The notes under the pieces: generated by a model
What the model was told of the DNA's origin: nothing
Databases searched by the model: none
The model's input: only the letters and a program-made list of their open reading frames with translations
Program-made: the position numbers and the translations under genes
Assembly: GCA_964521515.1 (NCBI GenBank)
Contig: CAZFRW010000001.1
Coordinates: 7,639 to 71,638, forward strand
Length of the DNA: 64,000 nt
Source: an uncultured Thermococci archaeon
Lineage (GTDB): Archaea; Methanobacteriota_B; Thermococci; Methanofastidiosales; Methanofastidiosaceae
Direction of reading: 5' to 3'
Shown: in pieces, positions 13,081-52,290 of the stretch
Layout of the letters: every line of letters begins with the position of its first letter
Numbering within the stretch: position 1 is the stretch's first letter

Positions 13081-14454
13081 TTAATTTTTTGTTTCTCTAA
13101 GATTTGCCAAAGTTGAAGGAATTAGCTCAGGCAATGCAGGATGTATATGCATCCCCTTAAATATCGTCTTAAAGTTCATATTGTTAGCCATTACATTGAT
13201 TACTTCTTGGATTAATATCGAAGCGTAAGGGCCAATTATATGAAATCCTAAAATCTTATTACTTTCTTTATCAACAATTGCTTTAGCAAATGTCTCTTCT
13301 TCAAGCATAGCAATACCCTTTGCGACACTATTGTACCTTGAATATCCCACCAGTATTTTGTGTTTCTTTTTTGCCTCGTTTTCAGTCATCCCAACAGAGG
13401 CTATTTCAGGGTATGAAAAAATTGCATGTGGTATGGCGTTGTACTCCATCGGAAGTCTCTTTCCATGGAGACTATTGTGCCACGCATATGCGGCTTCCTT
13501 GTTAGCAGAATGCCTGAACATATATTTACCTATGATATCCCCAAAGGCCCAGATGTTTTTCTTTGAAGTTTCTAGGTAATCATTAACTTTGATGAATCCT
13601 TTCTCATCTGTTTGGATACCTGTATTTTGAACTTTTAATAAATCAGAATTGGGCACTCTACCCCCTGCAACTAAAATCTTTTCTGCTGTCACTTCAATAC
13701 TTTTTTCTGATTCTTTTTTCTTTCCAATTAATGTGACATGATCTCCTGTTTGCGTGGCTTCAATAACTTCAGTGTTTGTGTATATCTTCATTCTCTTTGA
13801 CATTTCTTTCAAGAGTAACTCTGAAACTTCAGGCTCCTCATTTGCCACAAGCCTTACATTTCTTTGAATTATTGTTACTTCACTTCCCATTCCAGCCAGA
13901 AAATGTCCGAACTCACAAGCAATATACCCTCCGCCTAAGATGACCACACTTTTTGGAAGGTCATTTAATTCAAGAATGCTTTCATTTGTCAGATAATCTA
14001 TTTTATCAAGACCTTTCACATTCGGGATTAGAGGTCTTGCACCAGCAGCTATGAAAATTTTTTCTCCAAAAATCTTTTTCTTATTTACTTCCATTGTGTA
14101 GTCTTCTACAAAATACCCAGTTCCCTCGTAGAAATCAAGTTTTTTTGTCTGTTTTATTCCTTTTCGCATGTCATCTCTTTCTTCAGCAATAGAAGATCTC
14201 ATTCTTTCCATTATTTCTCTAAAACGAATCTTAGTTATATTAGCCTCCACACCGAGTTTTTTTGAATTTTCTATTTCTGCTACTCTGTCTGCAGGAAAAA
14301 TTAGTAATTTTGAGGGTATACATCCTAAATTCAAGCATGTCCCACCAAGAGGCCCCTTATCCACAACTGCCACTTTAAGTCCATTTGAAAGGGCGTCGCT
14401 TGCTACACCCATGCCGGCGCCTGAGCCGATAACTAAAACATCGTATTTTTTCAT
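13081..14454 (-). CDS. pyridine nucleotide-disulfide oxidoreductase, dihydrolipoyl dehydrogenase-like
   Basis: N-terminal FAD GxGxxG, redox-active GGTCLNLGCIPSK disulfide and a C-terminal dimerisation domain; 457 aa. Confidence 0.8.
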   Translation of the reverse strand: MKKYDVLVIGSGAGMGVASDALSNGLKVAVVDKGPLGGTCLNLGCIPSKLLIFPADRVAEIENSKKLGVEANITKIRFREIMERMRSSIAEERDDMRKGIKQTKKLDFYEGTGYFVEDYTMEVNKKKIFGEKIFIAAGARPLIPNVKGLDKIDYLTNESILELNDLPKSVVILGGGYIACEFGHFLAGMGSEVTIIQRNVRLVANEEPEVSELLLKEMSKRMKIYTNTEVIEATQTGDHVTLIGKKKESEKSIEVTAEKILVAGGRVPNSDLLKVQNTGIQTDEKGFIKVNDYLETSKKNIWAFGDIIGKYMFRHSANKEAAYAWHNSLHGKRLPMEYNAIPHAIFSYPEIASVGMTENEAKKKHKILVGYSRYNSVAKGIAMLEEETFAKAIVDKESNKILGFHIIGPYASILIQEVINVMANNMNFKTIFKGMHIHPALPELIPSTLANLRETKN

Positions 14455-15200: not shown

Positions 15201-16109
15201 GTGATATATATGAAAAATAAATTATTTTTCTCTGGAATATTAATATTTGTCTTGATTGTTGCAACTACCGGTTGCATAGGTCAGGGTTCTGAAAAAAAAA
15301 TTGTTATCGGTACAATGCCTTACAATGAGGAATACATTCTTGGGCACATGATATCTTTGTTATTAGAAGACGCCGGCTACCAAACTGAAGTTAAAGAAGG
15401 ACTTGGTGGCACACTCATAAACTACGAAGCGCTAAAGCGTGGGCAGATTCATGTATTTGTCGGGTACACTGGTGCTTTTTATAATACTGTTTTAAAACTA
15501 CCCGCATTAGATAACTGGGATCCCAATGTAGTCTACACTGAAGTAGAAAATGGATTAAGGGACAAGGAAGGGATATCAGTTGTTTCTAAACTTGGATTTA
15601 AGAACAACTATGCAATCTCTGTTCCAAGGATTTGGGCCCAAGAGAAGAATCTTACAAAAGTTAGTGAACTTGCACCGTATGCACCATTAATGGTACTTGG
15701 AACTGACATCGAGTATCCAACTGCTCCAGATGGACTACCGACATTTGAAAAGGCTTATGGATTCAAATTTAAAGATGTTAAATCAATGGAACCAACACTT
15801 GTATATGAAGCCATAAAAAATAATCTAGTTGATGTGATTACAGGTTACACAACTGACAAGAGAGGGGAACTCTTTGATCTAGTCGTTCTAGAGGATGACA
15901 AAGGCGGGCTTTTACCATACGATGCAATTATCATAACAACTAACTCATTTGCTAAAGACGAAGACGTAATTAAAGTTCTAAAAAAACTTGAGGGAAAGAT
16001 TGATGACAAAGCAATGGCAGATATGAATTATCAATATGACATCGAGAAGAAAGAATCAAGGGACATCGCTAGGGCGTTTTTAATCTCCCAAGGATTAATT
16101 AAAAATTAA
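15201..16109 (+). CDS. glycine betaine/choline-type ABC transporter substrate-binding lipoprotein (OpuAC/ProX-like)
   Basis: Signal peptide plus TGCIGQG lipobox-like cysteine. About 300 aa, of periplasmic-binding-protein size, followed by the ATPase and two permeases. Confidence 0.75.
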   Translation: MIYMKNKLFFSGILIFVLIVATTGCIGQGSEKKIVIGTMPYNEEYILGHMISLLLEDAGYQTEVKEGLGGTLINYEALKRGQIHVFVGYTGAFYNTVLKLPALDNWDPNVVYTEVENGLRDKEGISVVSKLGFKNNYAISVPRIWAQEKNLTKVSELAPYAPLMVLGTDIEYPTAPDGLPTFEKAYGFKFKDVKSMEPTLVYEAIKNNLVDVITGYTTDKRGELFDLVVLEDDKGGLLPYDAIIITTNSFAKDEDVIKVLKKLEGKIDDKAMADMNYQYDIEKKESRDIARAFLISQGLIKN

Positions 16110-16127
16110 TTAATTATTTATTTTTTT

Positions 16128-17270
16128 ATTGGAGAGGGTAAAACGAATAAATTCCTGTCAGGTGAGTGCTTAGAATCATTAAGATTTGAACATGTAACCA
16201 AAGTATACAAAGAATCAAAAGCCATAGAAGATCTTTCATTTGAGATATGCAAGGGTGAACTTTTCGTAATATTGGGCTCCAGCGGCTCTGGCAAGACAAC
16301 AACTTTGAGATTAATCAATAGGTTAATCGATCCAGATGAAGGGACAGTTTATCTCAATGGAAACGACACTAAAACTATGGATCCAGTCAAGCTTAGAAGA
16401 AAAATAGGATACGTAATACAGCAGATTGGTCTTTTCCCACATATGACGGTCAAAGAAAATATTGGTCTGATACCCAATTTAGAAAAATGGAAGGAAGAGG
16501 ATATTTCAAACAGGATTGATGAGCTTCTTACTCTAGTTGCACTGCCACCTGATCTATTCAGATCTCGTTACCCAAACCAATTAAGCGGAGGCCAGCAACA
16601 GAGGATTGGGCTTGCAAGAGCTCTTGTTATGGATCCACCTTTATTACTCATGGACGAACCTTTTGGTGCTCTTGACCCTCTTTTAAGAATGCAACTTCAA
16701 AATGAATTTCTTTCAATAAAAAGAAAGTTGGACAAAACAATTGTTTTTGTTACCCATGATATAGAAGAAAGTTTCATTTTAGCCGATAGGATTGGGGTCA
16801 TGCACGGCGGGAAAATGCTCCAGATTGGAACACCTTCTGAATTATTATTTGAACCTGCAAACGACATAGTTTCAAAAATAATTGGGGCTGAAAATAAATT
16901 CAAGGCCATCAAATTTCTTCTGGCAAAAGATGTAATGATACCTCTTGATAAGAATTGTGTCATTGAATCAGATATTTCATGTAAAGAAGCCATTAGTAAG
17001 ATGATTTCAGACAAAATAGAATCATATATAATAAAAAAATCAAACTCAGATATAGCCCAAATATCATTAATTGATTTATTGAATGAGAAGGATCAGGAGA
17101 AATCTATACTTGATCTCGGAACTAGGGTAAATGTAGTTGTGCCTAGCGATACACTTTCATCAGTAATATCTCTATTAAAATTATCAAATGATTCTATGGT
17201 AGTTGTTATTGAACATGGCAAGGTATTGGGTGTTGTAAGAATAAATTCAGTTTTAATGAACTTAGTTTAG
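16128..17270 (+). CDS. osmoprotectant ABC transporter ATP-binding protein with tandem CBS domains (OpuAA/ProV-like); start codon uncertain
   Basis: Walker A GSSGSGKTT, the LSGGQQQR signature and Walker B LLLMDEPF, with a C-terminal CBS pair. The ABC beta-strand LRFEHVTKVYKESKAIEDLSFEI lies upstream of the first canonical start (TTG 16272). The frame is open from 16110 with no ATG/GTG/TTG. The 16128 boundary is a provisional in-frame ATT. Confidence 0.7.
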   Translation: MGEGKTNKFLSGECLESLRFEHVTKVYKESKAIEDLSFEICKGELFVILGSSGSGKTTTLRLINRLIDPDEGTVYLNGNDTKTMDPVKLRRKIGYVIQQIGLFPHMTVKENIGLIPNLEKWKEEDISNRIDELLTLVALPPDLFRSRYPNQLSGGQQQRIGLARALVMDPPLLLMDEPFGALDPLLRMQLQNEFLSIKRKLDKTIVFVTHDIEESFILADRIGVMHGGKMLQIGTPSELLFEPANDIVSKIIGAENKFKAIKFLLAKDVMIPLDKNCVIESDISCKEAISKMISDKIESYIIKKSNSDIAQISLIDLLNEKDQEKSILDLGTRVNVVVPSDTLSSVISLLKLSNDSMVVVIEHGKVLGVVRINSVLMNLV

Positions 17271-17278
17271 GGGATATC

Positions 17279-17923
17279 TTGACTAATATAATAGATACTA
17301 TAATATCTGTTTGGATTACACATCAAATTACTCTTAGGACCATCCAGCACCTTTACATGTTTTCTATTGCCTTGATCATATCGATTTTGATAGGTGTCGC
17401 ATTAGCAATTTTAGTTTACAGCAATCCTAAACTTGCAAATGTCTGGTTTAATGTATTAAATGTAATAGAGACTATCCCTGAGTTAGCGCTATTCATTTTT
17501 CTCCTGCCCATCCTAGGCCTTGGAGAGAAGCCTACCATAGCAGCATGTGTCTTGTATTCGATACTTCCGATTATGAGAAATTCCTATACTGGATTGGCGT
17601 ATGTTAGCAATGAATATGTTGAAATTGCAAAAGCAATCGGTCTTACAAAAAATGAGATTCTATTAAAAATAAGACTGCCAATGGCCTTACCCCTGATAAG
17701 TAGTGGGATTAGGGTGGCTGTTGTGTACATAATGGGCATTGTCACATTAGGGGGTCTAATCGCCGCAGGAGGTCTAGGAGTCCCTTTACAAGCAGGGATA
17801 TATAGATACGATATCCCGGCCATAATTATTGCGGCCCTTTGGGTGGGCACACTTGGAGTTATATTTGACTTTATAGCATGGATTATAGAAAATAGATTAG
17901 CCCGGAGGTTCAATCCTTGGTAG
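17279..17923 (+). CDS. ABC transporter permease (OpuAB/ProW-like)
   Basis: Six-TM binding-protein-dependent transport permease with an EAA-like loop (EIAKAIGLTKNEILLKIRLPMALP). Confidence 0.75.
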   Translation: MTNIIDTIISVWITHQITLRTIQHLYMFSIALIISILIGVALAILVYSNPKLANVWFNVLNVIETIPELALFIFLLPILGLGEKPTIAACVLYSILPIMRNSYTGLAYVSNEYVEIAKAIGLTKNEILLKIRLPMALPLISSGIRVAVVYIMGIVTLGGLIAAGGLGVPLQAGIYRYDIPAIIIAALWVGTLGVIFDFIAWIIENRLARRFNPW

Positions 17924-18528
17924 CCATACTCCCTCTTTTGGACGCTATTCTACAACATCTTACTTTGGTCTTTACATCATTAGCTATAGGGATATGCCTA
18001 GCAACGCCTCTCGCTATTCTTTCCGTTTTTTATAAACGTGTTTCTTATCTTGTCTTAACTACAATAAATATGGCTCAGAGTATACCAAGTTTTGCACTCG
18101 TTGCAATAATCGTTCCTTTAGTTGGGATAGGATTCCTACCAGGTATAGTTGCTATTGTTTTGGGTTCAATTGTGCCCATTGTAAAGAATATGTATGTGGG
18201 GCTTGCGAAAACTGATGCTGAACTTATTGATACAGGAAAAGGTATGGGATTGACAGACTTTCAGGTAGTAAGATATGTGAGACTCCCTCTGGCATATCCT
18301 GCTATATTCGCAGGATTAAAATTTTCTGCCATAATTGCGAACGGCATAGCGGTTTTAACAGCAATTATTGGAAGCGGGGGGCTGGGGAGGATAATCTTTG
18401 AAGGTTTAGCAAGTTTTAACATAAATAAAACTTTGAGCGGAGCAATACCTGCGATCCTGATAGCTTTATCTTTAGATATAATATTCTCAATGGCAGAAAA
18501 AAAATTAAAATCAAAATCAGTTTACTGA
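17917..18528 (+). CDS. ABC transporter permease (second subunit)
   Basis: Paralogous permease with an EAA-like loop (DTGKGMGLTDFQVVRYVRLPLAYP). Its start overlaps the end of the previous gene. Confidence 0.75.
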   Translation: MVAILPLLDAILQHLTLVFTSLAIGICLATPLAILSVFYKRVSYLVLTTINMAQSIPSFALVAIIVPLVGIGFLPGIVAIVLGSIVPIVKNMYVGLAKTDAELIDTGKGMGLTDFQVVRYVRLPLAYPAIFAGLKFSAIIANGIAVLTAIIGSGGLGRIIFEGLASFNINKTLSGAIPAILIALSLDIIFSMAEKKLKSKSVY

Positions 18529-19521
18529 CTATTTGTAAGATCCTAAAGTTTTCATATAGTTTGCTCGCTCATAAGCTGAAGGCTCTAAAACATTTTCTTG
18601 GGACATAAGGCCTTGTACGGATCTTATTGATTTATAGTCATTTTTAGAAAGCCATTCTGTAACTTCTGACAAAACTTTTTCGATGTGGTCAATGCCATTT
18701 TTTATCAAGGCAGATGTCATCATTGAAACTTTTGCTCCAGCCATACTTGATTTTATGACATCAGATCCTGTGTGCACCCCACCCGTGATTGCAATGTCGG
18801 GCTTTACTTTTCCGTACATTATTGCAGCCCATCTCAATCTTAGTCTTAACTCATCACTCGTACTTAAAACAAGATTTCTTTTTATTTCAAGATTCTCAAT
18901 ATCAATATCTGGCTGATAGAATCTATTGAATATGACAAATGCATCAGCACCGGCTTTTTCTATATTTTTTAGTACATTTGGTGTTGAAGTGAAATAAGGG
19001 CTTAGCTTAACTGCCAGTGGGATCCTAATCTTTTGTTTGACACTTTTAACGAGATTATAATAGTTTTCTTCAATCTTTTCTGAATTTATTGAAATATCAG
19101 TTGGGATATAATAAATGTTTAACTCCAGCCCATCTGCACCAGCCTGTTCAATCTTTTGTGCATACTTTATCCAACCCCCGTCTGAAACTCCATTTAAGCT
19201 TCCTATAATTGGGATTTCTGAATCTGCCTTAACTTCTTTTACAAGTTCTATATATTCGTCTGGGGCAAACTTAAATTCTTTTATCTCTGGAAAATATGTG
19301 AGGGCTTCTGCATAACTTTCTGTTCCCTGAAGTAAAAATGTATTTAGGTCCTCCTGTTCAATCTCTAGCTGCTCTTCAAATAGAGAGTGTAAAACGACTG
19401 CACCGGCACCTGATTTCTCGGCTTTTTTGATATTCTTTGGATCTTCCCATAGGTATGAGGACGAAGCCACTATAGGATTCTTTAGTCTAAGTCCCATGTA
19501 GCTTGTTGAAAGATCAATCAT
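18529..19521 (-). CDS. dihydroorotate dehydrogenase-like (PyrD family) TIM-barrel flavoprotein, non-canonical active site
   Basis: LKNPIVASSS...GAGAVVLHSL N-terminus and ITGGVHTGSDVIKSSMAGA FMN-binding C-terminal motifs of the PyrD/DPD family. The catalytic N-x-(C/S)-CPN loop is replaced by NIYYIPT. The likely start is ATG 19521, overlapping the PFOR stop as ATGA; the track lists 19575. Confidence 0.65.
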   Translation of the reverse strand: MIDLSTSYMGLRLKNPIVASSSYLWEDPKNIKKAEKSGAGAVVLHSLFEEQLEIEQEDLNTFLLQGTESYAEALTYFPEIKEFKFAPDEYIELVKEVKADSEIPIIGSLNGVSDGGWIKYAQKIEQAGADGLELNIYYIPTDISINSEKIEENYYNLVKSVKQKIRIPLAVKLSPYFTSTPNVLKNIEKAGADAFVIFNRFYQPDIDIENLEIKRNLVLSTSDELRLRLRWAAIMYGKVKPDIAITGGVHTGSDVIKSSMAGAKVSMMTSALIKNGIDHIEKVLSEVTEWLSKNDYKSIRSVQGLMSQENVLEPSAYERANYMKTLGSYK

Positions 19522-22500
19522 TTTTCCTCCTCTTTTGGCTGTGGCATCTCCGACCAATATTTGTAGAAGTTCCATCTTTTTATAACTTGTTTTTGTGACT
19601 CATCTAGGAGTTTCTTTGCCATGTCAGGCTTGCTCCTTAACAGTATCTTGAATCTAGTTTCGTTATAGATAAATTTATCGAGGGTTATGGAAGGCTTGCC
19701 TGAGTCTAACTGAAGAGGATTTTTACCTTCCTTTTCTAGATTTGGATTATACCTCATTAGTGGCCAGTAACCAGAAAGAACTGCAGCTTTCTGTTGCTCA
19801 GGGCCATGAATAAGGTCATATCCCTGATTGATACAGTGTGCATAAGCAATAATAATAGAAGTCCCCTCGTATGCTTCCGCTTCTAGGAAGGCTTTAACTG
19901 TTTGAGCATTATTTGCTCCGAAAGCAACTCTTGCCACATATACATTTCCATAAATCATCGCCATCATGGCAAGATCCTTCTTTGGTGTTGGTTTTCCACC
20001 CATAGCAAATTTTGCCACTGCACCAAGAGGTGTGGCCTTTGACATCTGGCCTCCTGTATTAGAATACACTTCTGTGTCAAGTACAAGAATGTTGACATTC
20101 TTTCCGAGGGCAAGAACATGATCAAGACCACCATACCCTATATCGTATGCCCACCCATCTCCTCCTAAAATCCAGACGCTTTTTTTAACTAGAGAATCTG
20201 ATAAACTCAATAAATTCTTTGCTTCAGGTTTGTTTATGGACTTAAGCTTGGCCTTCAATAGTTTTACCATCTCTCGCTGCTTTTTTATTCCGGCTTCAGT
20301 ATCTTGATTTGTATTTTTTAATTCGTATACAAGGTCTTTTCCCAAATCATCGGTAAGTTTTTCAATTAGTTCCATTGCATGTTCCTTTTGCTTATCTAGG
20401 GCCAACCTCATACCGAGACCGAACTCTGCAGTATCTTCAAAAAGAGAGTTGGACCATGTTGGGCCACGGCCATCTTTATTTTTGGTGTAAGGAGTTGTTG
20501 GGAGATTTCCCCCATAAATTGATGAGCATCCTGTAGCATTGGCTATTACAGCCCTATCCCCAAACAATTGGGTCATTAGCTTTACATAAGGTGTTTGACC
20601 GCAACCTGAGCAAGCACCTGAAAACTCAAACAGAGGCTCTAAAAGCTGAATATCCTTTACAGTTGTGACATTTAATTTCTCACGGTCAACGTATGGAAGC
20701 GATTCAAAGAAATTCCAATTTTCCTTTTCCCTCTCAAGTATGGGGTCTTTAGCCTCCATGTTTATAGCCTTTAATTTGGGGTCCTGTTTGTTTTTCGCAG
20801 GGCATGTTTCATGGCAGAGTTTGCATCCAGTACAGTCTTCTGGCGAAGCCTGAACAGTGTAAATATAATCCTTAAACTGTGAAAACTTTGCTTCAACGTG
20901 TTTAAATGAAGCGGGTGCATTCTTTAATGCATCTTTTGGGTAAACTTTAGCTCTGATAACTGCATGTGGGCAGATAAAGGCGCATTTACCGCATTGTATA
21001 CAAGTTTCAGGGTCCCACACAGGTACGTCAAGTGAGATATTCCTCTTTTCCCACTTAGTTGTCCCAGTTGGATATGTCCCATCGTGAGGGAATGCGCTTA
21101 CCGGAAGTTCATCTCCCTTCCCGATAATCATTTTAGGTATAGCATTCTTGACATATTCAGAGGCTTCTTTTGGTATAGATGATTTTAAATCAAAACTGCC
21201 TGTGGCCTTTTCAGGTACCTTCACTTCATAGAGATTTCCAATGGCCTTATCAATTGCCTCATAATTCATCTTTAATATTTTTTCTCCTTTTCGGCCGTAT
21301 GTTTTTTCTGTAAACTTTTTAATTGATTTAATTGCATCTTCTTTGGGAATGACATTACTCAATGCAAAAAAACATGTCTGCATTATTGTATTGATTCTAA
21401 CCCCAAGACCTACATTCTTTGCGATATCATAAGCATCAATTGTATAAAATTTAATTTTCTTATCAATTATTTCCTGTTGGACATTTCTGGGAAGCTGATC
21501 CCACACCTCTCCCTTAGGATAAGGGCTATTCAAAAGGAATATTGAATTTTTTTCAGCAACACTCAGCATGTCATATTTATCCAAGAATGAACATTGATGA
21601 CAAGCCACAAAGTTTGCCTTATCGATTAGATATGGGGATCTTATAGGATCTGGCCCAAATCGTAAATATGAAATTGTTAGCGATCCAGCCTTTTTTGAGT
21701 CGTAATAAAAGAAGCCTTGGGCATAGTTGTCTGTTTCCTCACCAATTATTTTTATTGAACTCTTGTTTGCACTGACTGTACCGTCAGCACCTAAGCCGAA
21801 GAATACCGCCCTAGTTCTGTTTTCTGGCTCAACAAAAAAGTTTGGATCATAATCTAGACTTTGATGTGTTACATCATCATTGATTCCGACAGTAAATCTG
21901 TTCTTGGGTGCACTCTTTTTTAGTTCATCAAACACAGCCTTTGCCATTGAAGGTTTAAATTCCTTTGAGGAAAGTCCGTAAATGCCTCCAATTATCTTTG
22001 GCATCTTTTCCATTTTTAACAAACCATTTGAGAATGCCGAAGCTATGGCAGTTGTAACATCAAGGTAAAGAGGCTCGCCCAAAGCACCTGGCTCTTTAGT
22101 CCTATCCAGAACTGCAATACTTTTTACAGATAGGGGCAGTGATGAAATGAAATGTTTCAAAGAAAAGGGCCTGAAAAGTCTTACTTTTAGGACCCCTACC
22201 TTCTCACCTTTCTTGTTGAGATAGTTGACAGTTTCTTCTACAGTCTCAGCACCGCTTCCCATGATAACAATAATTCTTTCTGCATCCGGCGCCCCTTCAT
22301 ACTGGAAGAGTTTGTATTGTCTACCAGTAATTTTTGCAAATTTGTCCATTGCTTCCTGGACTAAATCTGGGCAGGCATTATAATAAGGATTAATTGTCTC
22401 TCTTGCTTGGAAAAATGTATCGGGATTATGTGATGTTCCTCTTATTATTGGATTATCGGGTGACAAGGCTCTTGCACGATGTGCCCTTACTAAATCTTCA

Positions 22501-23087
22501 TCTATCATCTCTTTTAAATCTTCAAGTGTTAAACGTTCGACTTTAGAAGTTTCAGCGGATGTCCTAAACCCATCAAAGAAGTGTAAAAATGGAACTCTTG
22601 ATTTTAATGTTGCGGCTTGGGCAATAAGGGCAGTGTCCATTACTTCTTGAACTGAGTTTGAAGCTAGAAGTGCAAATCCAGTTGAACGTACTGACATTAC
22701 ATCTCCATGATCACAAAATATAGATAGAGCATGTGTTGCAATAGTCCTGGCACTAACATGAAAAACAGTAGAAGTAAGCTCCCCTGCTATTTTAAACATA
22801 TTGGGGATCATTAAAAGAAGTCCTTGGGATGCTGTAAATGTAGTAGTAAGTGCACCTCTCTGTAATGAGCCGTGAACAGTACCAGATGCCCCCCCTTCAC
22901 TTTGCATCTCCGTTACATTAGGGACTGTACCCCATATATTGGGCTCTCCTTCAGATGCCCACTGGTCAGATAATTCACCCATTGTGGAGGAAGGTGTAAT
23001 GGGGTATATTGATATAACTTCATTAACGTGATAAGCTGTATATGCGGCAGCTTCATTTCCGTCAATAGTAACTATAGGCCTTTTCAT
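19518..23087 (-). CDS. por: pyruvate:ferredoxin (flavodoxin) oxidoreductase, single-polypeptide NifJ/PorA type
   Basis: 1189 aa with domains I, VI, II and III in order. It has two 4Fe-4S ferredoxin motifs (CIQCGKCAFICP, CTGCKLCHETCP) and the TPP-binding GDG motif (GGDGWAYDIGYGG). Confidence 0.9.
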   Translation of the reverse strand: MKRPIVTIDGNEAAAYTAYHVNEVISIYPITPSSTMGELSDQWASEGEPNIWGTVPNVTEMQSEGGASGTVHGSLQRGALTTTFTASQGLLLMIPNMFKIAGELTSTVFHVSARTIATHALSIFCDHGDVMSVRSTGFALLASNSVQEVMDTALIAQAATLKSRVPFLHFFDGFRTSAETSKVERLTLEDLKEMIDEDLVRAHRARALSPDNPIIRGTSHNPDTFFQARETINPYYNACPDLVQEAMDKFAKITGRQYKLFQYEGAPDAERIIVIMGSGAETVEETVNYLNKKGEKVGVLKVRLFRPFSLKHFISSLPLSVKSIAVLDRTKEPGALGEPLYLDVTTAIASAFSNGLLKMEKMPKIIGGIYGLSSKEFKPSMAKAVFDELKKSAPKNRFTVGINDDVTHQSLDYDPNFFVEPENRTRAVFFGLGADGTVSANKSSIKIIGEETDNYAQGFFYYDSKKAGSLTISYLRFGPDPIRSPYLIDKANFVACHQCSFLDKYDMLSVAEKNSIFLLNSPYPKGEVWDQLPRNVQQEIIDKKIKFYTIDAYDIAKNVGLGVRINTIMQTCFFALSNVIPKEDAIKSIKKFTEKTYGRKGEKILKMNYEAIDKAIGNLYEVKVPEKATGSFDLKSSIPKEASEYVKNAIPKMIIGKGDELPVSAFPHDGTYPTGTTKWEKRNISLDVPVWDPETCIQCGKCAFICPHAVIRAKVYPKDALKNAPASFKHVEAKFSQFKDYIYTVQASPEDCTGCKLCHETCPAKNKQDPKLKAINMEAKDPILEREKENWNFFESLPYVDREKLNVTTVKDIQLLEPLFEFSGACSGCGQTPYVKLMTQLFGDRAVIANATGCSSIYGGNLPTTPYTKNKDGRGPTWSNSLFEDTAEFGLGMRLALDKQKEHAMELIEKLTDDLGKDLVYELKNTNQDTEAGIKKQREMVKLLKAKLKSINKPEAKNLLSLSDSLVKKSVWILGGDGWAYDIGYGGLDHVLALGKNVNILVLDTEVYSNTGGQMSKATPLGAVAKFAMGGKPTPKKDLAMMAMIYGNVYVARVAFGANNAQTVKAFLEAEAYEGTSIIIAYAHCINQGYDLIHGPEQQKAAVLSGYWPLMRYNPNLEKEGKNPLQLDSGKPSITLDKFIYNETRFKILLRSKPDMAKKLLDESQKQVIKRWNFYKYWSEMPQPKEEEK

Positions 23088-23200
23088 AATAATTTCACCA
23101 TTAACGTATTAGTCTGTATTTGGAAATAAAAAAATTAAAATATAAGGTTATCCCATAAGGTCCTTTTTAAGAAAATGAGAGTAATATACAAAATAATTCA

Positions 23201-23710
23201 TTACCATTTGTTGAATCTAATTCTTTCCTGTTTGAATCTAAATGCTGGTTTTGGTATCTCTACAGGGTATCCCATTATTACTATTGAAAGAGGTATAATC
23301 CTCTCAGGAATTCCAAGTAAATTTCTAAATCCACTTACCCTATCCTCAAGTGGGTATATTCCAGACCAAACAGCCCCTAAACCAAGGGCGTGTGCCGCAA
23401 GTAAGATATTCTGAGTCGCAGCAGAGCAGTCCTGAACCCAAAATCCTGGATATTTCTCCAAACTTGGGTCTCCGCAAATGACTATAGCGGTAGATGCTTC
23501 CTTTGCCATTGGTGCATAGAGACTTATATTAGGAACCTCTTCAAGGATCTTTTTATCATTGATTACCACAAAATGCCATGGTTGCTGATTTCCCGCAGAG
23601 GGTGCACTCATGGCCGCTTCTAATATCCTATCAATCATTTCTTTAGGTATGTCCTTATCAGTAAATTTTCTTACACTTCTTCTTGTAAGAATTGCATCAA
23701 GCGTTTCCAT
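23201..23710 (-). CDS. nitroreductase family protein
   Basis: RRSVRKF...APSAGNQQPWHF motif; 169 aa. Confidence 0.75.
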   Translation of the reverse strand: METLDAILTRRSVRKFTDKDIPKEMIDRILEAAMSAPSAGNQQPWHFVVINDKKILEEVPNISLYAPMAKEASTAIVICGDPSLEKYPGFWVQDCSAATQNILLAAHALGLGAVWSGIYPLEDRVSGFRNLLGIPERIIPLSIVIMGYPVEIPKPAFRFKQERIRFNKW

Positions 23711-48909: not shown

Positions 48910-50148
48910 GTGTTAAGAGGGGATCAAATTAATTATATTTTAGCTCTGATAACAATTATTATTGGATTTATACTTGGAGTAACTATAATTAAATACCTGA
49001 CAGTACATCAGAGTAAGATTAGAATATATTTTCTGTTGCTATTTTCTGAACTTATTATTTTTGTTTCTCTCATCTATTTTAATCGAGATGAATTTGGAAT
49101 TGTCTTAACTTTGAGCTTTCTATTATCGGTCCTAGTTGGATATAATTTTATGACTTATATGGTGCTATCTATTAAAGATAAGAGACATATCCCTAAACTT
49201 ACTAGGAAAAAAGGGGATTTAGGGAAGGGCCATACTGCTATTATTTATTTTACTCATGGTGAGCCTGAAGATTATGATCCAATAGGTTGGATAAATCAGT
49301 TCAGGGAGTTTGATGAGCAGAAGATTAAATTTATACCATTTTTAATTAGACCAATATTTCTCTATATGTTAAGAAAAAAATATATTCATGTTGGTACAAG
49401 CCAACATAAAAAAATGCACACAAAGATGATGCAATCTCTTGAAAAAAGATTTAGAAATGAAGGAGATTCAACAACTAAATTTTATCTTTCATTTCTTGAA
49501 GATGAACCAAGGCCGGGCGCGGCAGTTATCAATGCTTTAAATGGAGGAGCAAGCAGAATAATTGTAAGTGAAGTATTTCTTACTATTTCTAATCATACTG
49601 TTGAAGGCGAAAAATTAGTTAAGAAACTCAATTTTGAGGACTACGGAGTTTCAATTTTATTTACTGGCCCCTTGTGGAATTCAAAAATATTACAAAGTAT
49701 GTTTGTTGAAAGGGTAAACAAACATCTAGGCAAAACTGATAAGAAAAAAGTTGGTGTTTTGCTTGTTGGTCATGGGCAACCTAAAGAATGGGACATTGAA
49801 TGGCCGACTGAAACAGAACAGGAGATAAAATTTAGAAAAGATGTCTTAGAATTATTTGTTAAAGATGGTTACGATCGAAAGAATCTTGATCTTGCTTGGA
49901 TGGAGTTTAGAGAGCCATGTACCTCAGAGGCCATTAAAAAATTATTAGAAAACAAAGTAGAAAAGATTTTTTATTTTTCAGCTGCAATAAGTGCAAATAG
50001 TATCCACAGCATGTGTGATGTGCCTAAACTTATTTCTAAGTGTGAAATACCTAATAATATCGATGTTATAAATCTTGAAGCTTGGAATGATGATCCTTTA
50101 GTAATTGAAGCAATTAAGGAGAAGATTGATAGAGTTAGGTTTGATTAA
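48910..50148 (+). CDS. membrane-anchored long-form class II chelatase-like protein (CbiX/CbiK/HemH-like double domain)
   Basis: Three N-terminal TM helices are followed by about 310 aa with two half-domains. Each half opens with a hydrophobic strand plus HG-x-P (TAIIYFTHGEP and VGVLLVGHGQP). The C-terminal LEAWNDDPLVIEAIKEKI resembles the ferrochelatase/CbiX tail. Confidence 0.5.
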   Translation: MLRGDQINYILALITIIIGFILGVTIIKYLTVHQSKIRIYFLLLFSELIIFVSLIYFNRDEFGIVLTLSFLLSVLVGYNFMTYMVLSIKDKRHIPKLTRKKGDLGKGHTAIIYFTHGEPEDYDPIGWINQFREFDEQKIKFIPFLIRPIFLYMLRKKYIHVGTSQHKKMHTKMMQSLEKRFRNEGDSTTKFYLSFLEDEPRPGAAVINALNGGASRIIVSEVFLTISNHTVEGEKLVKKLNFEDYGVSILFTGPLWNSKILQSMFVERVNKHLGKTDKKKVGVLLVGHGQPKEWDIEWPTETEQEIKFRKDVLELFVKDGYDRKNLDLAWMEFREPCTSEAIKKLLENKVEKIFYFSAAISANSIHSMCDVPKLISKCEIPNNIDVINLEAWNDDPLVIEAIKEKIDRVRFD

Positions 50149-50228
50149 TAATTTTAATAAATAATTTCTATTTATATAAGTGGATTATAGTCGAAACTCT
50201 TTTATGTATATTAAATATTAATTCAGAT

Positions 50229-50639
50229 ATGAAAACAAGGATGTTTGTTATTGCCGATACTTCATCACTAACACCCCAAACTGTTATTAACTATATTGTA
50301 AGTCTCGGAAAGACCTTGAACATTAAAGATACTTGTTATGGCATCATGGTTGAAGGAGATGATGATGTTGTTGAGAATGTCACACTGAAGGTCAGGGAAA
50401 AATTTGATGCGGATATATTCTCAAAACATCGAGCTTACCCAATAGGCGATGAAAGAAGATGCAGAGCCACAAGAGGTGGAGGAGCAAGGCCTGGCTATTA
50501 TTTCTTACTAGAAGAATATAAATTATTACCTCTAATTTCTAATGTTTTAAAAGAAGGAAGATTTAAAACTCTAGATAAAAAGAAGAAAAAACCTGTTGAT
50601 GTAGATTTACTGAAGAAAGCGATTAAAGAGATGGTGTAA
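50229..50639 (+). CDS. small Cys/Gly-rich protein, candidate methanogenesis-marker (Mmp5/Mmp6-type) protein
   Basis: 136 aa with a Gly-rich RCRATRGGGARPGYY segment. Placed by position in a cluster resembling the mmp3-6-5-15-17-7 arrangement. Family not verifiable by eye. Confidence 0.35.
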   Translation: MKTRMFVIADTSSLTPQTVINYIVSLGKTLNIKDTCYGIMVEGDDDVVENVTLKVREKFDADIFSKHRAYPIGDERRCRATRGGGARPGYYFLLEEYKLLPLISNVLKEGRFKTLDKKKKKPVDVDLLKKAIKEMV

Positions 50640-50641
50640 AT

Positions 50642-51076
50642 ATGAAAGTTTTCATTTATCCTCCAAACAGCATGATATTACAAGACTTAGTTGAAAGATT
50701 TGGGCATACCCCACTTGCCCTTGCAAAAGAGATAGAAAGAAGAGTAAATGATCCAGAGCTTGACTCTCCTCCTATGAATATAACTGAAATTGATGTAAAA
50801 GTAGGGTTAAAGTATGCTGCAATAGAAGTTCCATCAGGCGTCAGAGGCAGACTTGCAATGTTTGGGCCTTTAATCGATGAGGCAGAAGCAGCAATAATTG
50901 TAAATAACTTTCCATCTACATTTGGGTGTATGGCATGTGCTAGGACTAACGAACTTACTATTTATTTGATCAAACAAAAGAAAGTTCCAACATTAGAACT
51001 TGATTATCCAACAAATGAAGAAGAAGTGGAAGACTTTATTGGGAGAATTAAGAGTTTCTTGGAGGGGTTAAAATGA
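50642..51076 (+). CDS. small CxxC protein, candidate methanogenesis-marker (Mmp5/Mmp6-type) protein
   Basis: 144 aa with GCMAC cysteine pair. Starts 3 nt after the previous gene and overlaps the next by 4 nt, so it is tightly coupled. Confidence 0.35.
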
Positions 51077-52290
51077 TTAAGATAGCTCAACTTTCATGTG
51101 GTAATGATTACAGCGGTATCCAGAAAGAAATTGAAAAAGCTGCAGAAACAGTCGGCGCTAAAATAGTCTTTCCCGATGTTGACATTGATTTTGATGATGC
51201 TATAAAAGATTTTGGTTTCGATCCAGTAAGTCCTGGATTAAAACTAATGGTTGCAAGGGCAAAAGCGTTGGCAGATAAAACATTTGAAGCAGATGCTGTA
51301 TTAATAGCTACATGTTTTAGATGTGCGGAAGGCGCTTTAATAAGAAATGAGCTAAGAAGATATATTCAGAAGCACACGAAACTTCCAGTAGTCATGTATT
51401 CATTCACTGAAAATACAAAAGCAAGCGTTCTTTTAATAAGAATGGAAGCATTAGTTACAATCGTACAAAGAAAGGATCTATTGGCTCGTGAAAGACAAGT
51501 TGGAATCACAATGGGGCTTGACTCTGGATCAGCTACAACAAAGGCAGTTATAATGCAGGATAATCAAATTGTATCCAAGTTCTGGCATCCAACTTCAGGA
51601 GTACTTGAGTCAGCTGAGAAAGCAGTAAATGAAGCACTTAAGCTTGCTAAGATGGACTTTAAAGATATAGAGGCAATTGGAACAACAGGGTACGGCCGAT
51701 ACATTCTGGGAGAACATTACAAAGCGAAGCTTGTCCAGGAAGAAGTAACTGTAAACTCTAAAGGAGCGGCTTTTCTTGCTAACAGACAGAAAGGAGAAGC
51801 CACAATTCTTGATATCGGGGGGATGGACAACAAAGCAGTAACAATCAAGGACGGTATACCTGATAGTTTTACAATGGGTGGAATATGTGCCGGCGCATCA
51901 GGAAGATTCTTAGAGACTGCCGCAAAGAGGCTTGGTGTCGAAATAGCTGAATTTGGAGAGCTTGCAGCAAGGGGTGACCTTCACAAAGTTCCAATGAACA
52001 GCTACTGCACAGTTTTTGGTATCCAAGGACTAGTTTCTACTTTAGCTGAAGGGCACAGCAAAGAAGATGTAGCCGCAGCGGCTTGCAGAAGTGTTGCTGA
52101 ACAAATTTATCAGCAGCAACTTCAAGAAATTGATGTAAGATACCCAGTTATTCAGGTGGGCGGTACATCACTTTTGAAAGGCTTAGTGAGGGCAATTGGA
52201 GATATCTTAAATACCGAGCCTTTAGTTCCTCCAAACTCACAGTATATAGGTGCGGTGGGTGGAGCCTTACTCTCCTCAGGATTTATCTAA
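51073..52290 (+). CDS. BadF/BadG/BcrA/BcrD (HgdC-like) ATPase, CoA-substrate-specific-enzyme-activase type; candidate Mmp15
   Basis: The C-terminal roughly 260 aa have the ASKHA-fold motifs of HgdC-type activases ([17 protein letters not shown]...[12 protein letters not shown]...IQVGGTS). The N-terminal roughly 140-aa extra domain has a CFRC pair. Confidence 0.65.

Follow-up and report, generated by a model that had tools for sequence, protein, structure and literature searches.

Pyruvate:ferredoxin oxidoreductase (PFOR) is central to anaerobic and microoxic carbon metabolism and is usually drawn as handing its electrons to free ferredoxin or flavodoxin. More dedicated arrangements include the NifJ-NifF system, in which a pyruvate:flavodoxin oxidoreductase works with a flavodoxin containing flavin mononucleotide (FMN), and the PNO of Euglena and Cryptosporidium, in which PFOR is fused to a flavoprotein. 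In a tree of the dihydroorotate dehydrogenase/dihydropyrimidine dehydrogenase (DHODase/DHPDase) superfamily, Barba et al. (2013; BMC Syst Biol 7:99, PMC4016543) distinguished an uncharacterised clade, X2, encoded beside PFOR in 69 bacterial species; a preT-like gene also adjoins PFOR in 13 of the 69, and the authors speculated about a complex whose substrate would be similar to a dihydropyrimidine or a hydantoin. Here we analyse a stretch of 64,000 nucleotides (nt) from an uncultured Thermococci archaeon (contig CAZFRW010000001.1, positions 7,639 to 71,638; hereafter the window), in which the gene for a single-chain, nifJ-type PFOR is directly followed by one for a protein of the PyrD fold (hereafter the partner).

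Comparable arrangements have been described in several bacteria. In Synechocystis, nifJ (sll0741) is transcribed as a single unit with sll0743 and sll0744, the last annotated as 'dihydroorotate dehydrogenase (fumarate)', and this unit is induced upon entering microoxic conditions (PMC11368403). In Chloroflexus, porA (Caur_2080) adjoins Caur_2081, annotated as 'dihydroorotate oxidase', and other genes annotated as dihydroorotate dehydrogenase (DHOD), Caur_3923 and Caur_2338, are found elsewhere (PMC3150298). In Propionibacterium, a GltD-like and a DHOD-like gene flank the PFOR gene and are co-transcribed and co-regulated with it, and the authors postulate a bifurcating complex (PMC7650540). The proteins of these three bacteria are assigned to the partner family here by annotation and gene context. 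A literature search for functional or structural studies of this family found none, only context observations and hypotheses. The statement of the initial annotation that this is not a standard pairing does not hold, as the pairing has been in print since 2013 (PMC4016543), is widespread and even has its own NCBIfam model, NF005741. We take NF005741 to correspond to clade X2, whose description it matches, the two being equated by their descriptions alone; its members agree with the window protein in length, in motifs and in being encoded right after PFOR. What is new is the archaeal copy: X2 was reported only from Bacteria (the 69 species of Barba et al.), whereas the copy in the window belongs to a methanogen-related archaeon.

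The PFOR gene (19518..23087, minus strand) is an open reading frame (ORF) encoding 1189 aa, and the partner gene (18529..19521, minus strand) encodes 330 aa plus the stop. Read from the sequence, the junction of the two (19518..19530, minus strand; AGAGGAGGAAAAATGATTG) consists of GGAGG at 19530-19526, a 4-nt spacer and ATGA, where the partner ATG (19521-19519) overlaps the PFOR TGA (19520-19518) by 4 nt, an overlap already described in the initial annotation. The same -4 overlap, with a purine-rich stretch in front, is present in all four Methanofastidiosum loci of our samples (L001-L004) and in several bacterial loci too, and a 4-nt ATGA overlap by itself is commonplace in operons. Judged from the gene layout, a bicistronic operon of PFOR and partner in a Candidatus Methanofastidiosum genome is the best explanation. 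An in-frame ATG at 19575 gives rise to a 348-aa ORF in a mechanical ORF list (19522-19575 extra, minus strand; 58 nt of overlap with PFOR), and a public gene call that is 99% identical (P0001) starts there. Because nearly all homologues are close to 330 aa long and their alignment begins at residue 1, the real start of the partner is 19521, and the longer start of P0001 is probably a mis-call.

To what extent the pair is conserved was assessed in two samples: 80 loci from genomes, one genome per species, with relatives of 49-94% identity, and 80 loci from metagenomes, for which the query alignment was led by a divergent family member. In the genome sample all 79 informative loci have a nifJ-type PFOR gene as their immediate upstream neighbour on the same strand, the 80th having only 132 nt of upstream DNA; in the metagenome sample the same is true of 66 of the 71 informative loci, one more retains only a remnant of PFOR, and nine of the 80 have too little upstream DNA to be informative. 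The hosts in the genome sample include members of Chloroflexota, Acidobacteriota, Cyanobacteria, Bacteroidota/Ignavibacteria, Calditrichota, Armatimonadota, Alphaproteobacteria, Fibrobacteres, Caldisericia and Methanofastidiosum. Since the adjacency recurs in approximately 97% of the 150 informative loci and in many phyla, it is not due to chance, and the initial annotation was right in tying the flavoprotein specifically to PFOR. The distance from PFOR stop to partner start has a median of 60 nt, and the two genes overlap or abut in 16 genome loci; the 4-nt overlap in the window thus differs from the gap of about 60 nt typical of the family. When all ORFs within 3-4 kb were clustered for 80 loci, no third conserved neighbour emerged, the largest cluster comprising 5 loci. 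In the remnant-only locus (L113, 2188-3342, plus strand), the start of the ORF is 61% identical to PFOR residues 7-47 and runs directly into the DHOD-like protein, which looks like the scar of a deletion of nearly the whole PFOR gene.

Of the 160 loci, six have a PreT/GltD-like gene at a distance of up to 6 kb (E. coli PreT as tblastn query, E<=1e-8). The same query at E<=1e-3 found no PreT-like gene in the 64-kb window, and no GltD-type protein was seen by Pfam among the large ORFs of the window. The six genes (L081 238-1611, L085 155-1516, L157 917-2041, and those in L033, L047 and L021) are 32-34% identical to E. coli PreT and mostly full length, the one in L021 being a 150-residue fragment at the end of the locus. 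In L081, L085 and L157 the PreT-like gene stands directly before PFOR, which is the three-gene variant described by Barba et al. (2013) and in Propionibacterium.

The identity of the partner was determined with curated models. It matches NF005741 (PRK07565, 'dihydroorotate dehydrogenase-like protein') over residues 1-329 of 330 with 452.5 bits, against a cutoff of 303, and its only Pfam match at E<=0.01 is PF01180 (DHO_dh, 60 bits). It stays far below every PyrD cutoff (94 bits against 270 for TIGR01037, 90 against 269 for NF005574, 78 against 330 for NF041011, and at most 30 bits for class 2) and below that of PreA (70 bits, cutoff 335), and tRNA-dihydrouridine synthase (Dus, PF01207) gave no match in the same Pfam scan. 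Together with the active-site residues considered below, these cutoffs rule out a canonical PyrD, PreA or Dus. The closest homologues are Methanofastidiosum proteins of 94% identity named 'dihydroorotate dehydrogenase-like protein', and several sources annotate the family as 'dihydroorotate dehydrogenase (fumarate)'. There is no solved structure of the NF005741 family; the best sequence match in the PDB is 1ep1_A, the PyrD subunit of L. lactis DHODB (E=7e-9). The family is acidic, with a median isoelectric point of 5.1, as are ferredoxins and flavodoxins. Three divergent representatives, P0250 (500 aa), P0195 (419 aa) and P0241 (416 aa), are extended at the N terminus by 70-170 aa of sequence with no relation to PFOR.

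A model of the partner was built with AlphaFold2 (AF2) from 84 family sequences, with a predicted template modelling score (pTM) of 0.81 and a mean predicted local distance difference test score (pLDDT) of 78.7. Foldseek matched this model best with the FMN domain of pig dihydropyrimidine dehydrogenase (DPD; E ~1e-14) and with DHODA/B (TM ~0.65). The family profile was aligned by hhalign with L. lactis DHODA (1dor_A; probability 98.1%) and with E. coli PreA (98.6%), and conservation was counted in 197 close members and 142 diverse representatives. Much of the FMN site is kept: DHODA Lys164 corresponds to K172, Asn127 to N135, and the TGG and T/S phosphate loops to T246-G-G248 (TGGV) and T269-S270 (TSA). 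DHODA Asn193, which contacts both FMN and substrate, corresponds to N199 in the phmmer alignment with DHODB and the hhalign alignment with PreA, while hhalign with DHODA instead placed N199 on Asn197. Of the residues that serve the pyrimidine, the catalytic Cys130 falls in a gap against DHODA and on Y138 against the PreA Cys, the partner containing no cysteine at all; Lys43 is replaced by H45 (P, H, R or Y across the family), Asn67 by the invariant P78, and Asn132 by Y138, a variable position. These alignments show a partner predicted to be a barrel of the PyrD/PreA fold that keeps the FMN-binding core, and would thus bind FMN, and that has by sequence lost the dihydroorotate/uracil catalytic base and most of the pyrimidine-contact residues.

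The change is most evident in the catalytic loop (19099..19125, minus strand), where E133-L-N-I-Y-Y-I-P-T141 stands in place of E-L-N-L-S-C-P-N-V of DHOD; in the alignment of ELN135-I-Y-Y-I-P with ELN127-L-S-C130-P-N132 of DHODA, the loop of the partner is two residues shorter. Among the 142 representatives E133 is invariant, N135 is found in 135, position 137 is Y in 114 and F in 13, and position 138 is variable. The alignments with DHODA and with PreA therefore agree with the initial annotation that the catalytic Cys/Ser loop has been replaced and the FMN motifs retained, and its view that the protein is unlikely to be a dihydroorotate dehydrogenase is strengthened by the scores under all PyrD and PreA cutoffs and by the absence of the catalytic base and of three pyrimidine-contact residues. 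Two outcomes named beforehand as speaking against its interpretation, an intact active site of a known family and an adjacency unique to this genome, are not what we observed, there being no Dus match and the adjacency being widespread.

The partner also carries four signatures that are conserved family-wide: SLFEEQ, ELNxY, FNRFYQPDxD and a C-terminal R..Y. The family-specific motif S46-L-F-E-E-Q51 (19369..19386, minus strand) follows immediately after the position of DHODA Lys43 (H45). F198-N-R-F-Y-Q-P-D-I-D207 (18901..18930, minus strand) is invariant or nearly so in both the 197 close and the 142 diverse members, and its R200 is specific to the family. The C-terminal tail, residues 314-330 (18532..18582, minus strand), is likewise family-specific, with R319 in 140 and Y322 in 131 of the 142 representatives; the alignment with PreA stops at about residue 312, where the domain with two [4Fe-4S] clusters starts in PreA, and the tail occupies that place. 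N110-G and G-G-W117 are further strongly conserved motifs. Several family-specific motifs coincide with the low-confidence segments of the AF2 model, 47-84 (in which SLFEEQ lies), 218-225 and 321-330 (pLDDT <50), which would fit segments that may become ordered on a partner protein or a ligand.

The PFOR itself is complete. It matches TIGR02176, pyruvate:ferredoxin (flavodoxin) oxidoreductase, over residues 6-1179 with 1842.5 bits against a cutoff of 911, and has the full set of Pfam domains (POR_N, PFOR_II, POR, EKR, two Fer4 and TPP_enzyme_C); the closest solved structures are those of Moorella (6cin, 1385 bits) and D. africanus (1b0p, 1288 bits). Its translation shows the ferredoxin-type Cys motifs CIQCGKCAFICP and CTGCKLCHETCP and the thiamine pyrophosphate motif GGDGWAYDIG. 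The ferredoxin-like domain (20793..21026, minus strand; residues 688-765, all covered by the Fer4 matches) contains two CxxCxxCxxxCP motifs and would be the electron exit and the docking site for the partner. PFOR residues 677-768 also match the two-cluster part of the PreA model (E=1e-6), a match that is generic to such domains.

Taking into consideration that (i) the partner has neither an iron-sulfur (Fe-S) domain nor an NAD(P) domain, and so needs an electron partner, and (ii) it resembles PreA minus the two-cluster domain, while the electron path of PFOR ends in a domain of this kind, docking on PFOR is the most economical reading. We hypothesize, at about even odds and largely by analogy, that the partner is an FMN protein that docks on the ferredoxin domain of PFOR, takes its electrons and reduces a non-pyrimidine, probably anionic substrate. 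The electrons released by the oxidation of pyruvate would pass one at a time along the cluster chain of PFOR, through the ferredoxin-like domain with its two [4Fe-4S] clusters, to the bound FMN, and the two-electron-reduced flavin would then reduce the small substrate, which the conserved R200, R319, Y137 and Y322 may bind or protonate. In reverse, the partner could supply electrons for pyruvate synthesis, and in a minority of lineages a PreT/GltD-like protein beside the pair could provide a link to NAD(P)H.

Known systems offer models for each part of this scheme. In PreA of E. coli and in mammalian DPD, the FMN domain is fed by the protein's own domain with two [4Fe-4S] clusters, so that in both these enzymes and the proposed complex an FMN-containing TIM barrel would receive electrons from such clusters; the DPD FMN domain is the best structural match to the partner, and hhalign aligned the family with PreA at a probability of 98.6%. 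Compared with PreA, the partner lacks the C-terminal 2x[4Fe-4S] domain, the catalytic Cys (here Y138) and the conserved Lys (here H45), and whereas PreA works with PreT, the neighbour in the window is PFOR, a PreT-like gene being present only in a minority of loci. The PyrD-PyrK pair of L. lactis DHODB, which includes the closest solved sequence relative, is a precedent for a PyrD FMN that exchanges electrons with a separately encoded Fe-S cluster, that of PyrK; unlike it, the window protein has no catalytic Cys, no equivalents of Asn67 and Asn132 and no PyrK partner, and scores far under the PyrD cutoffs. With NifJ-NifF and PNO the proposed complex would share a nifJ-type PFOR that passes electrons to a dedicated FMN-containing acceptor; the folds of flavodoxin and of the FNR-like reductase module of PNO are unrelated, whereas the candidate acceptor here is a TIM barrel with a pocket of the substrate type.

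Several observations weigh against this proposal. Four family members from the metagenomes have more than 2 kb of upstream DNA and no adjoining PFOR gene, and E. coli ydbK, encoding the PFOR YdbK, is not accompanied by such a partner gene. The top 150 of 1690 representative clusters contain no fusion of PFOR and partner; where a protein is longer, its extension is unrelated or uncharacterised. Y137 is replaced by Phe in 13 of the 142 representatives, and is therefore not a strict catalytic acid. In a mirror-tree comparison of 59 loci the distances of PFOR and partner correlate (r=0.85), a value that would also arise for any two genes sharing genomes and is not specific to interaction. Moreover, we infer both the complex and the electron transfer, and FMN binding is predicted from alignment. 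The neighbours at the four loci lacking PFOR are a LysR regulator, a DegV protein, a peroxiredoxin and an ADP-forming acetyl-CoA synthetase/GNAT protein. In the last of these (L135, 691-3417, plus strand) the family member follows an ADP-forming acetyl-CoA synthetase fused to GNAT, an architecture which may be that of a Pat-like protein acetyltransferase; in L139 (1561-2217, plus strand) a peroxiredoxin precedes it. Either may hint at a function or be a coincidence.

Four other explanations were considered. That the protein is a genuine, divergent dihydroorotate dehydrogenase, using the clusters of PFOR in place of PyrK, would explain the DHO_dh domain, the PyrD fold and the 'dihydroorotate dehydrogenase (fumarate)' annotations, and within the 64-kb window, to which the search was confined, there is no second PyrD. 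Scores of 78-94 bits against equivalog cutoffs of 269-330, the missing catalytic Cys/Ser and the loss of the K43, N67 and N132 equivalents leave this reading close to refuted and make it very improbable, and in Chloroflexus, with two further DHOD-annotated genes (PMC3150298), the copy beside porA, Caur_2081, looks like an extra one. A three-component system resembling DPD, in which the partner would work with a PreT/GltD-like protein (NAD(P)H, FAD, [4Fe-4S]) encoded elsewhere and PFOR would join as a pyruvate:NAD(P)+ link or for bifurcation, has been proposed in different versions by Barba et al. 2013 (PMC4016543) and in the Propionibacterium study (PMC7650540). It accords with the domain composition of the partner, that of PreA minus its Fe-S domain, with the co-transcription of the three Propionibacterium genes and with the preT-like gene found beside PFOR in 13 of 69 species and near the pair in six of our loci; yet 154 of the 160 loci have no such gene nearby, nor has the 64-kb window, and what is conserved is the two-gene core, so that we regard this system as unlikely.

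We attach a similarly low probability to the partner being a metabolic neighbour only, that is, a flavoprotein with its own electron partners that has no contact with PFOR, acts on a metabolite related to pyruvate or acetyl-CoA, for example a 2-hydroxy or unsaturated acid, and is encoded there for co-regulation. R200, R319, Y137 and Y322 would suit a carboxylate, the gene in L135 follows the acetyl-CoA synthetase/GNAT protein and no fusions were found; but a protein with neither a second redox domain nor an NAD(P) domain requires some electron partner, and near-invariant order and strand, short or overlapping junctions in more than 10 phyla and the lack of any other conserved gene are more typical of subunits. 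An accessory, non-catalytic role, in which the barrel protects, stabilises or regulates PFOR, for example against oxygen, and may have lost substrate turnover or serve only as an electron sink or safety valve, would be compatible with the lack of conservation of the classical catalytic base and of the K43 equivalent, with the many aerobic or microaerophilic hosts (Cyanobacteria, Chloroflexia, Acidobacteriota, Armatimonadota), with the microoxic induction of the Synechocystis operon (PMC11368403) and with the peroxiredoxin in L139. We consider this role less probable still, since the conserved polar residues of the active-site loops (N110, N135, K172, N199, R200, Q203, D205 and D207) point to a real ligand site and the module is equally present in the strict anaerobes Methanofastidiosum, Anaerolineae and Caldisericia.

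Returning to the electron-accepting FMN protein docked on PFOR, a stronger form of the proposal, which we advance tentatively and would sooner doubt than assume, is that a large subclass of PFORs consists of two-subunit pyruvate:X oxidoreductases, with the X2/NF005741 protein as their genuine, stoichiometric FMN subunit. Were this so, the description as simple pyruvate:ferredoxin enzymes would not fit many PFORs of Cyanobacteria, Chloroflexota, Acidobacteriota, Bacteroidota and this archaeon, and the TIM-barrel flavin would turn the one-electron output of the clusters into a two-electron reduction of an acceptor, bypassing free ferredoxin. In any case, a partner kept right behind PFOR in more than 10 phyla, apparently including Synechocystis and Chloroflexus, implies an acceptor, a branch point or a control element that has gone unrecognised, and pyrimidine metabolism is reconstructed wrongly where this gene is, as routinely happens, mis-annotated as pyrD or 'dihydroorotate dehydrogenase (fumarate)'. 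The window itself contributes little beyond an example from the Archaea and a clearer picture of which residues were lost and which gained, and its interest is moderate; the pairing has been known since 2013 with its function still to be assigned, and it is this gap that makes follow-up worthwhile.

As to the origin of the archaeal pair, the nearest homologues of the partner, 75-94% identical, come from metagenome-assembled genomes of Candidatus Methanofastidiosum, and the genes around the pair in the window encode proteins typical of Archaea (deoxyhypusine synthase, an RFC-type AAA+ protein, an RPA-like protein, HypA and DUF211). With 56 bacterial PFORs that have a partner gene, the window PFOR shares 57-66% identity, and with E. 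coli YdbK 53.6%, identities that place the archaeal pair among the bacterial pairs and would fit an acquisition from Bacteria. Both genes have a GC content at third codon positions (GC3) of 0.30-0.32, equal to that of the neighbouring archaeal genes, and a recent horizontal transfer, as judged by composition, was rejected.

Upstream of PFOR lies an AT-rich spacer of 113 nt (23088..23200, minus strand), in which a TATA-like TTATATTTTA at 23145-23136 and a GGTG at 23099-23096 can be read by eye; the spacer is probably the promoter and ribosome-binding site of the two-gene operon, as predicted from these motifs. Directly 5' of PFOR beyond this spacer, a 169-aa protein of the FMN-containing nitroreductase family is encoded (23201-23710, minus strand). 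Farther away, a CbiX/ferrochelatase-like protein of 412 aa and a BcrAD/BadFG-type ATPase of 405 aa (48910-52290, plus strand) have no apparent tie to the pair. On the other side, about 4 kb from the pair, a 457-aa class-I pyridine-nucleotide-disulfide oxidoreductase (13081-14454, minus strand; Pyr_redox_2 and dimerisation domain) is encoded, which is not PreT-like and from which the pair is separated by a transporter operon on the opposite strand. This operon (15201-18528, plus strand) encodes an OpuA-type glycine-betaine ABC transporter, with an OpuAC binding protein, an ATPase and two permeases, and is convergent with the pair: the stop of its last gene ends at 18528 and abuts the partner stop (18529-18531), with zero intergenic spacer.

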